Source: an uncultured Thermoplasmata archaeon (GTDB lineage Archaea > Thermoplasmatota > Thermoplasmata > RBG-16-68-12). From it: 64,000 bases of DNA. Location: the NCBI GenBank assembly GCA_963768855.1, contig CAVYJM010000010.1, forward strand, positions 64,001 through 128,000. Reading direction: 5' to 3'. Made by a program: the position numbers and the translations under genes. Shown here piece after piece: positions 2,707-10,356 of the stretch (the first letter of the stretch is position 1; each line of letters opens with the position of its first letter). The notes below the pieces were generated by a model that saw nothing but the letters and a program-made list of their open reading frames with translations, made no database searches and was not told the origin of the DNA.

Positions 2707-3114
2707 TCAGTGCAGGTCCGGCCGGGCGACGACGGTCTCCGCGAACAGCACGCCCTTCACGGTGCGCAACCGATCCGCCAGCTCCGCGACCTGCTTCGAC
2801 TCCCCTTCGACGATGAGGACCTCGAGGCATGCTTCTTCGCTCAGGTGTGTGTGGGCCGTGGCACGGATGGTGCCGAGGAAATCGTGCTGGCGGTGCAGGA
2901 CTCGGTGCGTCACCATTCCGACGTCATGGCGATAGACGATTGTGATCGTGCCGACAACGTGACCGCCCGCCTGGATGCGGCGCTGCACGAGACCTTGTCG
3001 AATCAGATCTCGCAACGCTTCCGAGCGGCTCGCGTACCCCTTCTCCCGGACGAATCGGTCGAACTCTCCGAGCAGGGGGCCTTCCAGAGAAACGCCGATG
3101 CGCTCGACGGCCAT
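2707..3114 (-). CDS. nikR: Nickel-responsive transcriptional regulator NikR
   Basis: RHH start ERIGVSLEGPLLGEFD...SRSEALRDLIR; Ni ligands equivalent to H76 (RQHDF), H87/H89 (AHTHL), C95 (EACLE). Confidence 0.95.
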   Translation of the reverse strand: MAVERIGVSLEGPLLGEFDRFVREKGYASRSEALRDLIRQGLVQRRIQAGGHVVGTITIVYRHDVGMVTHRVLHRQHDFLGTIRATAHTHLSEEACLEVLIVEGESKQVAELADRLRTVKGVLFAETVVARPDLH

Positions 3115-3142
3115 GTGCTACCCGCCGTGGACGAAGTGCTAC
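3115..3142. promoter_or_regulatory. Candidate NikR operator immediately upstream of nikR start (GTGCTAC-N14-GTGCTAC)
   Basis: Exact 7-mer direct repeat at 3115-3121 and 3136-3142 abutting the nikR ATG; similar to GT(G/A)(C/T)TAC half-sites recalled for deltaproteobacterial NikR. Confidence 0.55.
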
Positions 3143-3203
3143 TCCCGGATGAATCCTACGGTTTTCGCCTCCTACCCCCGCGCTAAAGCTTTAAGTTGCG
3201 GCA

Positions 3204-3230
3204 GTGTTACTCTCACAACCGGCGTCATAC
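3204..3230. promoter_or_regulatory. Candidate NikR operator over the NiCoT transcription start (GTGTTAC-N13-GTCATAC)
   Basis: Lies between TATA-like tttaag (3190-3195) and ATG 3242; half-sites and 27-bp span fit NikR operators. Confidence 0.6.
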
Positions 3231-3241
3231 CGCCCTTTTGC

Positions 3242-3994
3242 ATGTCCGACCCCGTCCCTCTCTGGGTGTTCACGCTCGCGGCCCTCGGTCTGGGCCTTCG
3301 CCACGGCGTCGACTACGACCATATCTCCGCGATTTGGGACATCACGAGCAGCCAGAAGACGGTCCGCGGCGGCGTGGTCCTGGGATGGTTCTACGCCGGT
3401 GGCCACGGGACCATCGTGGCGATCCTCGGGATGGCGGCGGTCCTGGTCGGCCTGCGGCTGCCCCCCGGTGTGGACAACGCGATGACGATCGTTGTGGGGG
3501 TCACGCTGATTGTCCTGGGCGTCTACGTCATCAACATGCTCGTCCGCCACCCGGGAGAGACTTTCCAGATGAAATCGCGATGGGTCTTGATTGCCTCAGG
3601 GGCCCTACATGCGTACGAACGTGCGGTGCTGCGCCTGACAGGTCGAATCCGAAAGCAGCGGCAAGTCGACCTCAGGGTCGCCGGACCTGCATCGGCCTAC
3701 GTGATTGGCCTCATCCACGGAGTCGGCGGGGAGACGCCGACCCAGATCCTTCTCTTCATCATCGCAGGCGGCATCACGGGTGGGCTCGCCGGTGCGGTCG
3801 TCGTCTTGGCCTTCGTCGCTGGCGTCTTCATCACGAACACAATCGAGTCGGTCCTCGCTTCCCTGGGTTATGCTCGGGCGGCAGGGAGCCCCCGGTTGTT
3901 CCGCCGGGTCGCGGCGGCTGCGGCCTTCTTCAGTCTCCTGATTGGCGCGCTCTTCGTGATGGGTGGGAGCGGCCTGCTTCCGCCCCTGAGCTGA
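3242..3994 (+). CDS. High-affinity nickel/cobalt transporter, NiCoT (HoxN/HupN/NixA) family
   Basis: TM2 signature [12 protein letters not shown] (cf. RHAxDADHI), [19 protein letters not shown]; divergent from nikR. Confidence 0.88.
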
Positions 3995-4071
3995 CCTCGC
4001 TCCAGGCGCACGAGTCGGTCAACTCCCTCCGTGCAAGCCCTTAAGTCCCACCCTCGACGTGAATGCCTTCG

Positions 4072-4566
4072 ATGGATTACGCGAAGCAGCTCGATCAGGC
4101 TCGGAGTCTCGCGGACCTCTTCGAACTCGTGAAGCGGGGCGTCTCCGCCGTGGTCGGCCGCAACCGCGCCGGCCTCATGCTCGCTCTCGCCGACCTGGGC
4201 AACCATCCTCAGGGCTTCCTCGGCGCCTTCTACCCAATCGCGACGAATGTGATCGTGATGAACAAGGTGCCCCTCCTGCGAATTCAGGAGACGAACCCGG
4301 AGCTCTACAAGCCCTATGCGTTCTACGTCCTCCTCCACGAGTACCTGCACTCCGTCGGCTTCGTCGACGAGCTCGTGTGCCGCGACCGGGCTCGCGCCAT
4401 TTCGGAGACGCTCTTCGGCCCCGGTCACCTCGTGACCCGGATCTCCGAGGACTTCTCCCAGTTCTTCCCGAACCTGGTGTTCCCCGACGCCGCCTGGCAG
4501 CCGCAGGAACTCCGGCTCGAGTTCGTCCCGAACTTCGACCGCGGCTCCGCGTCCTACTTCGCTTAG
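4072..4566 (+). CDS. Small hypothetical protein with HExxH zincin motif
   Basis: [11 protein letters not shown]; TATA-like cttaag 4040-4045 places start at ATG 4072 (alternative 4063). Confidence 0.75.
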
Positions 4567-4658
4567 GCCGACCGGGAAGTCCCCGCGCGGGGGAACAGAA
4601 AGAAATAGACGCGTCGTTTCCAGACCTTGCCCGGAAAGGGACGACTGGGAGGAATGAG

Positions 4659-8628: not shown

Positions 8629-8958
8629 TCAACCCAGGTGGCGCATCACCCGCACATCCTCCACCGTGATGAGGCCCCCCTTCACCATCTCGCTGATCTT
8701 CGGGATGACCGCAGCGATCTTCTTCTCGGAGTCCACTGCCTCGATAATCACCGGCAGATCCTCGCTGAGCCGCAACGGCGTCGAGGTGTGCAGGAGGCTC
8801 CGCTTCCCGAAGCCGTAGACGCCGCGGGTAACCGTGGCGCCCCAGATCCCTTGTTCCCGCAGATGGTGCACGACCGCCTTGTAGGCGGGGAGGCCACCAT
8901 ATCGGTCCGACTCCCCGAGATAGATCTTCACCCGCACCGCCTTTTCGTCGAGCTCCAT
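8629..8958 (-). CDS. DUF190 (P-II-like) protein
   Basis: KIYLGESD, GATVTRGVYGFG, LSEDLPVIIEAVD, GLITVEDV; directly after crcB. Confidence 0.92.
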   Translation of the reverse strand: MELDEKAVRVKIYLGESDRYGGLPAYKAVVHHLREQGIWGATVTRGVYGFGKRSLLHTSTPLRLSEDLPVIIEAVDSEKKIAAVIPKISEMVKGGLITVEDVRVMRHLG

Positions 8959-8959
8959 C

Positions 8960-9349
8960 TCACCCGCCTCCCAGAAGCATCCCGACCGCCCGCCCGAGGT
9001 ATGCTCCGACCACGCATAGGCCTGCGTTCAGGAAAACGTTTCCCGCGGCCCAGCCGAGCTGTCCCCCCGCCAGGAGGGTCACGGTCTCGAGGCTGAATGT
9101 GGACATCGTCGTGTATCCTCCGAAGATCCCGATGAACGCGAAGGCCCTCAGGTCCGAGGAGATGAAGCCACGGCCCATCGCCAGGAAGAAGGTCACCGCC
9201 AGGAGGAAGCTTCCCGTCAGGTTGACAAAGAACGTTCCCCACGGGAAGTCGCCACGGGTCAGATAGCCGGATGCCTCGTAGCGGAGCACGCTTCCGAAAG
9301 CTCCGCCTGCGGCCACGAGTCCCACGAGCTTGGCCTGGTCCCAGTCCAT
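8960..9349 (-). CDS. crcB: Fluoride efflux channel Fluc/CrcB
   Basis: GGAFGSVLRY, FPWGTFFVNLTGSFLL, GIFGGYTTMSTFSLET. Confidence 0.95.
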   Translation of the reverse strand: MDWDQAKLVGLVAAGGAFGSVLRYEASGYLTRGDFPWGTFFVNLTGSFLLAVTFFLAMGRGFISSDLRAFAFIGIFGGYTTMSTFSLETVTLLAGGQLGWAAGNVFLNAGLCVVGAYLGRAVGMLLGGG

Positions 9350-9411
9350 CGTCGCACCGTCCCTCGGCGCGGGGACCGGGTGGACCCCGACGCCGTCTCG
9401 CCCGGTTCGCG

Positions 9412-9461
9412 GTAGAAGCCATCAGCCCCGGGCGGGGCGGTTGGGGTGGGCCTCATCACCC
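9412..9461 (-). ncRNA. Fluoride riboswitch (crcB motif) aptamer
   Basis: Minus strand GGTGATGAGGCCCACCCCAACCGCCCCGCCCGGGGCTGATGGCTTCTAC: P1 GGTG/CACC, pseudoknot AGGCC/GGCTT, AACCGC...GCTGATG...CTAC consensus; about 60 nt upstream of crcB; TATA-like tttat at 9486-9490. Confidence 0.92.
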
Positions 9462-9513
9462 GGGTCGGCGAGACACGGGAATCCCATAAACCTTTGTCGG
9501 TCGACAGCCGGCT

Positions 9514-9819
9514 TCACGGTCTCGCGTGGTAGCGGACCTTGCCGATGAGCAGGTGCCGCGGCACCATGCCGAAGTGGCGGCTGTCGCGGCTGTGGGCCAT
9601 GTTGTCCCCGAGCACGAAGAAGCCCGCCGCGGCGTCGCTGGACATGATCCGCTTGACGAGGAACTGACCGGTCGCCTCGGGATCGCGGAGCACGACGATG
9701 TCTCCGGCCGCCGGGAGGTGCGATCGGTACGCCCACCGGTTCACGAGGACGTAGTCCCCGGAGCGGAGCGTCGGCTCCATGCTCTGGTCTTCGACCCGGA
9801 ACCGGGCGAGGGGGAACAC
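9514..9819 (-). CDS. sodX: Nickel-type superoxide dismutase maturation peptidase (S26 family)
   Basis: RFRVEDQSMEPTL, GDYVLV, LVKRI, VLGDN..HSRDSRHFG; 15 nt downstream of sodN. Confidence 0.9.
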   Translation of the reverse strand: MFPLARFRVEDQSMEPTLRSGDYVLVNRWAYRSHLPAAGDIVVLRDPEATGQFLVKRIMSSDAAAGFFVLGDNMAHSRDSRHFGMVPRHLLIGKVRYHARP

Positions 9820-9834
9820 CGTCCCCCAGATTGC

Positions 9835-10356
9835 TCACCCGAGCTTAGGGTAGACGGTCTCGCGGGCCGTCGGGTATGGGGCCTTCGCCTTGAACGTGGC
9901 GATGCCCTTCGTCTTCCAGAAGGCCTCCGCGATCTCGTTGGCGAGCTTGAGCATGTCCTCGGCGGCGGCGAGGTTGATCTCCTGGCGTCCCTTGCTCCCC
10001 GCCTTCAGCGCCTTCCACACGGTGTCGTGGAGCGTCGGGAACTGCTGGAGGTGCTCCGGCTTGAAGTAGTCGCCGTACAGGATGCGGATCTCCTGCTTGT
10101 AGATCTCCGCATGCTGCTCCTTCGTGGCGATGTACCGGCCCAGCTTGCCATGGAACTCCTCCTTCTGCGCCAGGGTCGCGCTCGGTCCCGGGTGCTCGAG
10201 CTGGCCGATCAGGTCGACCATTCGGATGACCGTGTGTGCCGCGAGCTGGGCGTGGTGCGGGTCGTAGATGCCGCAGGGGATGTCGCAGTGTGCGTACGCG
10301 ACCGGGGCCGGGCGGACCCAATCGAGGGCTCGGAGTAGCTTGTGTGCGAGGGACAT
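9835..10356 (-). CDS. sodN: Nickel superoxide dismutase precursor
   Basis: 22-aa leader ending VAYA followed by Ni-hook HCDIPCGIYDP; TKEQHAE, DYFKPEH, FWKTK; TATA tttaaat 10381-10387 places start at ATG 10356. Confidence 0.95.
   Translation of the reverse strand: MSLAHKLLRALDWVRPAPVAYAHCDIPCGIYDPHHAQLAAHTVIRMVDLIGQLEHPGPSATLAQKEEFHGKLGRYIATKEQHAEIYKQEIRILYGDYFKPEHLQQFPTLHDTVWKALKAGSKGRQEINLAAAEDMLKLANEIAEAFWKTKGIATFKAKAPYPTARETVYPKLG

Follow-up and report, generated by a model that had tools for sequence, protein, structure and literature searches.

A nickel superoxide dismutase (Ni-SOD) operon, sodN-sodX, lies within nucleotides 2707-10356 of a stretch of 64,000 nucleotides of archaeal DNA (the window), together with a divergent gene pair encoding the nickel (Ni) regulator NikR and a small six-helix permease (Table 1). 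The window corresponds to positions 64001-128000 of contig C10 in a 2.87-Mb bin with a completeness of 93.6% and an estimated contamination of 7.7%. The source is an aerobic Thermoplasmata archaeon of the soil and sediment lineage Candidatus Angelarchaeales, which is the order RBG-16-68-12 of GTDB (PMC9038741), and a heme-copper oxidase is present in its genome. Gene identities were set by family hidden Markov model (HMM) scores against curated cut-offs. By these scores all genes named in an initial annotation, which had been made from the DNA letters alone, were present at or near the places assigned to them. The span proved more mixed than described there, with an HExxH protein, a winged helix-turn-helix (wHTH) remnant, DUF190, crcB and a fluoride riboswitch among the genes left unmentioned. 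Where single genomes, related sodN loci and families of the order have to be told apart, they are designated by G-numbers (G000 being the window's genome), L-numbers and f1-f7, respectively.

Table 1. Features of the Ni-SOD locus and its surroundings, in window coordinates (aa, amino acids; nt, nucleotides; bit scores are followed by the family cut-off in brackets)
Feature	Position	Strand	Product or sequence	Evidence or remark
sodN	9835..10356	-	Ni-SOD precursor, 173 aa	TIGR02753, 151 bits (90); PF09055
sodN TATA box	10380..10387	-	TTTAAATA	23 nt before the ATG at 10356
sodX	9514..9819	-	S26-type Ni-SOD maturation protease, 101 aa, GTG start	TIGR02754, 82.5 bits (63.25)
nikR	2707..3114	-	NikR, 135 aa, ribbon-helix-helix and Ni-binding C-terminal domain	NF003381, 132.8 bits (105); PF08753, E 1.8e-22
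Predicted NikR operator	3204..3230	+	GTGTTAC-N13-GTCATAC	Between TATA-like TTTAAG (3190-3195) and the permease ATG (3242)
Second candidate NikR site	3115..3142	+	GTGCTAC-N14-GTGCTAC, direct repeat	Abuts the nikR start codon
Permease gene	3242..3994	+	NicO/UreH-like six-helix permease, 250 aa	LRHGVDYDH signature; NicO match below cut-off
HEYLH protein gene	4072..4566	+	HExxH protein, minigluzincin-like, 164 aa	Conserved neighbour; fold match of AlphaFold2 model
katG	4692..6920	+	Catalase-peroxidase, 742 aa	TIGR00198, 1224 bits (770); full two-domain length
FNR-like gene	7829..8623	+	FAD/NAD(P)H oxidoreductase, 264 aa	PF00970 and PF00175; convergent with sodX
wHTH gene remnant	about 7530-7790	+	Decayed	Upstream of the FNR-like gene
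DUF190 gene	8629-8958	-		Behind the fluoride riboswitch
crcB	8960-9349	-		Behind the fluoride riboswitch
Fluoride riboswitch	9406-9469	-		Rfam RF01734, 44 bits (34)
ACR3 gene and ArsR-like open reading frame	10415-12081	-	Arsenite exporter; ArsR-like protein	ACR3, 417.6 bits

The sodN product also scored 141 bits against PF09055 (cut-off 25, E 4e-41). It consists of a 22-residue leader ending in A-Y-A, followed by the mature start HCDIPCGIYDPH, in which residues 23-31 of the precursor form an intact Ni-hook, HCDIPCGIY, with His1, Cys2 and Cys6 of the mature protein. From His1 onward the mature protein aligned to residue 1 of the Streptomyces NiSOD (1q0d/1t6u, E 3e-18). A hook of the form HCD[IVY]PC[GK]IYDP follows a leader of roughly 20 residues in 80 of 80 related loci, where the leader ends in a small-x-small site, A-[YH]-A in the Thermoplasmata. 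The sodX gene starts 15 nt downstream of sodN, adjoins it in nearly all of these loci, and encodes the boxes SMEPT with the Ser, VKRI with the Lys, and GDN..SRDSR. Cleavage of the leader between A-[YH]-A and H, with exposure of the His N-terminus, and a Ni-dependent SOD activity of the product are predicted from the conserved site and the adjacent protease. In Streptomyces coelicolor and S. seoulensis the system is the same in its mature N-terminal Ni-hook and in a leader removed by an adjacent S26-type peptidase. It differs in that the mature protein has 117 residues as compared with 151 here, where an internal insert and a C-terminal extension are present. The Streptomyces leader has 14 residues.

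In more than 30 related Thermoplasmata loci the TATA box of sodN is conserved in sequence and in its spacing of exactly 23 nt from the ATG, and the DNA further upstream was not conserved. L001 and L002 have no start codon at the place of the upstream ATG at 10380, so that sodN starts at 10356. An archaeal TATA promoter and a leaderless sodN mRNA are inferred from this arrangement, with a predicted transcription start site. The 23 nt between TATA box and ATG (10357-10379, with equivalents in L001-L033) are themselves strongly conserved, with a core GCTACGA, and this block may be the site of a regulator. The evidence as a whole supports a functional-looking Ni-SOD operon, and the initial description of an intact hook behind a 22-aa leader, of sodX directly downstream and of an archaeal TATA box with a probably leaderless start was borne out.

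Order-wide counts were made over 79 genomes, and the window's family comprises 44 genomes including the window's own. The sodN gene occurred in 51 of the 79 and in 40 of the 44 family genomes (39 of 43 without that of the window), and Fe/Mn SOD in none of the 44. In the window's genome, at its completeness of 93.6%, neither superoxide reductase nor Fe/Mn SOD was found; Cu/Zn SOD was not searched for. Judged from the genome sequences, Ni-SOD is the only recognisable SOD in this family. In a quick tree, 53 archaeal SodN sequences (Thermoplasmatota, Micrarchaeota, Marsarchaeota and Nanoarchaeota) fell on one side of a branch with an SH-aLRT value of 86, next to sequences from Chloroflexota, Pseudomonadota and Acidobacteriota on the other side. 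The presence of sodN in Thermoplasmatota and other archaea is a matter of published record: Sutherland et al. reported Ni-SOD from archaea, together with its transfer between domains, in 2021 (bioRxiv 10.1101/2021.01.12.426412), and Ni-SOD is listed for the Lutacidiplasmatales (PMC9287336). The passages concerned in these two sources do not treat sodX, NikR or the permease, and the main text of the Angelarchaeales paper (PMC9038741) mentions neither superoxide nor nickel. Archaeal Ni-SOD was already in print. The locus is an ordinary, published kind of archaeal Ni-SOD operon with its activating protease, and the headline is not new.

The nikR gene is divergent from the permease gene, as noted initially, and a NikR box lies between the two. 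In the NikR protein the spacing H-x10-H-x-H-x5-C was found, which matches the Ni ligands H76, H87, H89 and C95 of the E. coli protein. A genome-wide search for the pattern GTGTTAC-N12-15-GTNNNAC, for which roughly two matches were expected by chance, gave three: the box in the window, one in the nikM promoter and one inside a gene. The nikM match is on contig C11, which carries the importer nikMQO; it follows a second nikR gene and is flanked by a TATA box on one side and the start codon of nikM on the other. Upstream of the permease, a NikR box was present in seven of the seven related loci that carry NikR and also in L089 and L090, making nine loci, and that of L002 is perfect (GTGTTAC-N13-GTAACAC). 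The window box is of the same kind as the published NikR signal of delta-proteobacteria, GTGTTAC-N13/14-GTAACAC (PMC545781). Since the operator lies over the predicted transcription start, it would act in repression when Ni is plentiful, which is the logic of an importer. The second candidate site, next to the nikR start codon, has counterparts in L001, L002, L006, L012 and L019 and could serve nikR autoregulation. Direct-repeat candidates of the forms GTGCTAC-N14-GTGCTAC and GTGTTAC-N13-GTGTTAC (this site of the window; L012 at 13120 and 13181; L019 at 9698 and 9759) have a geometry unusual for a symmetric NikR tetramer. A third nikR paralogue is divergent from genes for an ABC-3 (Znu/Mnt-like) permease and ATPase (G000:C17:72957-75050), so that a regulator of the NikR family may control a further metal transporter.

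The permease had been annotated as a NiCoT. This assignment was given up, as both HMM scores lie under the family cut-offs (19.6 bits against Pfam NicO, PF03824, cut-off 27.7; 39.8 against TIGR00802, cut-off 333) and the protein has six helices rather than eight; only the HxxxxDH signature is kept. This motif (LRHGVDYDH) and a second one, GxxHG, are invariant among relatives, and in the AlphaFold2 model (pLDDT 77, helices in a 3+3 layout) they are borne by the broken helices 1 and 4. A Foldseek search with the model gave no PDB match at E <= 0.001, and since the best TM-score was only 0.36, to CcdA (5vkv), the fold gives no functional assignment. The database relatives are Thermoplasmata proteins of about 230 aa which match PF03824 and/or PF13386 and are labelled 'high-affinity nickel permease', 'NicO family', 'TauE/SafE' or hypothetical; one label reads RcnA. 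Six-helix Ni permeases of the UreH/SodT type adjoin urease, hydrogenase or sodN genes (PMC2667541, PMC4284471) and are recognised by six helices, a His-rich loop between helices III and IV and a neighbouring Ni-enzyme gene (PMC4284471). The permease described here has six helices and is co-located with sodN, and is likened to UreH/SodT by description, the His-rich loop being absent from the window's copy and present in a second type.

Three permease forms were found in one slot near sodN: type A; type B, with the His-rich loop and 28% identity to type A; and a longer form in L090, which matched the A/B profile only at E 2.7e-15. The divergent type-B permeases were missed in a first tblastn pass and were recovered by a profile search. 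The slot, which lies between the HEYLH and Zn-ribbon genes, was covered in 20 loci and contained the permease in 11 and NikR in 8 of them. In about 15 genomes the permease gene is 2.5-7 kb from sodN (6.6 kb in the window). In L091 of family f6 (G026:C34, 208-4044) a type-B permease gene directly follows those of methylmalonyl-CoA mutase subunits and meaB (mcm-meaB). We consider the permease to be a probable NikR-repressed Ni importer, with transport direction, metal specificity and repression all predicted from sequence.

Across the genomes of the order the permease went with SodN (both 44, permease only 6, SodN only 7, neither 22; odds ratio 23) and not with HycI, an imperfect marker of hydrogenase (both 16, permease only 34, HycI only 17, neither 12; odds ratio 0.33). 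NikM accompanied HycI (both 14, NikM only 4, HycI only 19, neither 42; odds ratio 7.7), and NikM and the permease were nearly mutually exclusive (both 3, NikM only 15, permease only 47, neither 14; odds ratio 0.06). SodN without the hydrogenase marker was found in 36 genomes, 31 of which had the permease and one NikM. Families f4, f5 and f7 possess hydrogenase, NikR and NikM and have neither sodN nor the permease. Co-occurrence with hydrogenase instead of sodN, a possibility raised in the initial annotation, is not the pattern of these genomes as far as the permease is concerned.

The interpretation that we favour, with reasonable though not high confidence, is that of a standard Ni-SOD module of an aerobic archaeal lineage, in which Ni arrives most likely via a NikR-gated permease of NicO/UreH type and KatG and the FNR-like reductase stand outside the nickel regulon. 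The sodN gene would be transcribed leaderless from its own TATA promoter, and SodX would cut the 22-residue leader after A-Y-A to expose His1, upon which the hook would bind Ni. The metal would most likely enter through the small permease encoded 6.6 kb away, and Ni-loaded NikR would repress the permease gene at the box between TATA box and start codon. KatG and the FNR-like reductase would be co-located oxidative-stress genes with separate promoters. The initial proposal of a single nickel regulon was retained in part. The Ni-SOD operon, its archaeal promoter and the link between NikR and the permease stood, and the unity of the regulon, KatG as a fixed part, the NiCoT and the novelty did not; with no NikR box found at sodN, KatG in only 11 of 79 genomes and two [NiFe] hydrogenase clusters in the window's genome, one regulon was an overstatement.

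The proposed arrangement would correspond to that of SodT in marine cyanobacteria, supplemented by control through NikR. SodT belongs to the UreH family of permeases; its gene adjoins sodN-sodX in marine Synechococcus and Prochlorococcus, and the protein is proposed to supply Ni for the sole SOD (PMC4284471). Like SodT, the permease described here is a small six-helix protein co-located with sodN-sodX, a likeness by description. Unlike SodT, it is encoded at a distance of several kb and divergently from NikR with a NikR box, and the window's copy is devoid of the His-rich loop. With the NikR-nikMQO regulons of delta-proteobacteria (PMC545781) the locus shares the kind of operator and a nikR gene adjoining the importer under its control. 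It differs from them in its target, an archaeal secondary permease of NicO type, and in having a direct-repeat form of the site as well.

Several observations weigh against a permease dedicated to Ni-SOD. A search for a NikR box at the sodN promoter found none, and the conserved block between its TATA box and ATG has no recognisable partner half-site, so that sodN itself is not visibly Ni-regulated. In Streptomyces, sodN is regulated by Nur, a Fur-family protein (PMC3919588), and at sodN here no Ni-responsive site was found. The initial statement that neither urease nor hydrogenase is encoded in the window does not extend to the whole genome. A bona fide [NiFe] hydrogenase large subunit is encoded at C6:300117-301583 and a second [NiFe] cluster near C6:621800-624600, with a HypA gene adjoining each cluster; urease, Ni carbon monoxide dehydrogenase and LarA were not found in this 93.6% complete genome. 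Nickel is thus required for more than SOD in the window's genome, and with two hydrogenase clusters and the NikR-nikMQO importer the permease need not be SOD-specific there. As a marker, HycI failed to pick up a candidate protease gene adjoining the first of these clusters. The permease is without an adjoining NikR in three loci, and in family f6 it is not near sodN and lies on a different contig. The co-distribution is largely clade-wide, with perhaps 2-3 independent events behind it, and the Fisher values overstate it.

These observations could be explained if the NikR-permease pair were a general, cell-wide Ni importer serving the hydrogenases as well, with its proximity to sodN an inherited synteny of no enzyme-specific meaning. 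The hydrogenase clusters with HypA, the missing box at sodN and the separation of the two genes in f6 all fit such a role. So do the 'EA-type' genomes, in which NikR is paired with a 362-aa NiCoT on a contig without sodN, and G004 and G005, which have the permease and the hydrogenase marker and no sodN. However, the 31 genomes with permease and SodN and no hydrogenase marker are not accounted for in this way, the hydrogenase-bearing families f4, f5 and f7 use NikM and never this permease, and differing permease subtypes are kept in one slot near sodN. We hold a general importer to be rather unlikely, though it is the strongest of the alternatives.

An RcnA-like exporter of Ni and cobalt, or a cobalt transporter, would be a second explanation of the permease. 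PF03824 also includes the exporter RcnA, a name that one database relative bears, and the type-B permeases have a His-rich loop. The position of the G026 gene after mcm-meaB hints at a link to cobalt or B12 in that genus. These points too speak against a Ni importer. On the other hand, an operator between TATA box and start codon, as at nikM, would repress the gene under ample Ni, a logic that does not suit an exporter. The near exclusion of permease and NikM is what is expected of functional equivalents, and an importer function is described for six-helix permeases of the UreH/SodT type that have His loops (PMC4284471). We regard an exporter or cobalt transporter as improbable.

The origin of the contig was considered as well. 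The gene order sodN-sodX, FNR-like gene, HEYLH protein, Zn-ribbon membrane protein and proline-dehydrogenase-like gene is common to more than 30 independently assembled Thermoplasmata metagenome-assembled genomes (MAGs), in line with the archaeal origin assumed initially. The closest sodN loci (33 of 33) came from MAGs of several studies labelled Thermoplasmata or 'Methanobacteriota', one of them on a contig of 528 kb. GC content is uniform along the window, and a DUF835 domain, which is largely archaeal, is present in it. TFB was tried as an archaeal marker for C10 and rejected: none of the six TFB genes of the genome is on this contig, and its archaeal origin rests on synteny instead. A bacterial or chimeric contig with Ni-SOD genes foreign to the archaeon, for which the estimated bin contamination and the lack of TFB on C10 might speak, has next to no likelihood in the face of this shared gene order, the single archaeal side of the SodN tree, the TATA-type promoters, the uniform GC content and the DUF835 domain.

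Among the further genes of the locus, katG was correctly named at the outset, and its place as a core part of the module was ruled out by its occurrence in 11 of the 79 genomes. It stands beside sodN or on the sodN contig in about six of them (G000, G072, G058, G034, G018 and G051, the cluster being split across contigs in the last), and is also near sodN in L002, L005 and the more distant L043. KatG is a sporadic, variable insertion that favours the sodN neighbourhood. In a Nanoarchaeota MAG the gene immediately upstream of sodN encodes a peroxiredoxin (L034, 7832-8395), another case of antioxidant genes clustering with archaeal sodN.

The FNR-like gene, also named initially, adjoins sodN throughout families f1-f3. 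A homologue with 27-30% identity is found beside sodN in Micrarchaeota and Marsarchaeota, and its sole match in the window's genome is the gene of the window. Counting the Thermoplasmata, FNR-like genes lie near sodN in three phyla in three arrangements, being directly upstream on the same strand in Micrarchaeota and divergent in the Marsarchaeota locus (L038, 8128-8841; L053, 3502-4215; L041, 9111-9872). An obligate partnership with SodN was rejected, as f3 and f4 genomes that lack sodN still have the FNR-like gene, and in f6 the two genes are unlinked. A role resembling that of E. coli Fpr in the SoxRS superoxide regulon seems plausible.

The HEYLH gene always adjoins the permease slot. The motif is invariant in 22 of 22 linked orthologues, and in the wider family of 333 cluster representatives the first His varies. 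In its AlphaFold2 model (pLDDT 89) the protein is similar to archaeal minigluzincins (abylysin, jannalysin and selecase), with abylysin (4jiu) as the best fold match (probability 1.00, TM 0.70 on target), and there is a weak match to Pfam Zincin_1. As a tentative extension of the favoured interpretation, Ni import in Angelarchaeales may be split by client, with the NikR-gated NicO/UreH-type permease supplying Ni-SOD and NikR-gated NikMQO the [NiFe] hydrogenases, and the FNR-like and minigluzincin-like proteins may be further, undescribed parts of the module.

The neighbourhood as a whole is one of stress and detoxification genes. The fluoride riboswitch, crcB and DUF190 follow sodX directly on the same strand, an arrangement present only in the window and L002-L004. 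The remnant of a winged-helix regulator has an in-frame TAG in the window, frameshifts in L090 and is a stub in L002; an intact paralogue is on contig C2 (G000:C2:1933-2144). On the upstream side of the sodN promoter the end of the ACR3 gene adjoins, and an ArsR-like open reading frame with a CVC metal site overlaps the ACR3 5' end by about 150 nt as called, with starts unrefined.

The gain from these results is incremental, since each component is of a known kind, from SodN with its protease and NikR to a Ni permease next to sodN, and what is described here is an archaeal, NikR-controlled counterpart of SodT. The useful addition is comparative evidence that suggests a NikR-gated NicO/UreH-type permease as the source of Ni for Ni-SOD in this order. 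For a whole family of aerobic soil archaea, the only SOD that can be recognised requires nickel, and the locus offers a concrete, testable candidate for how the nickel of Ni-SOD is acquired and sensed.

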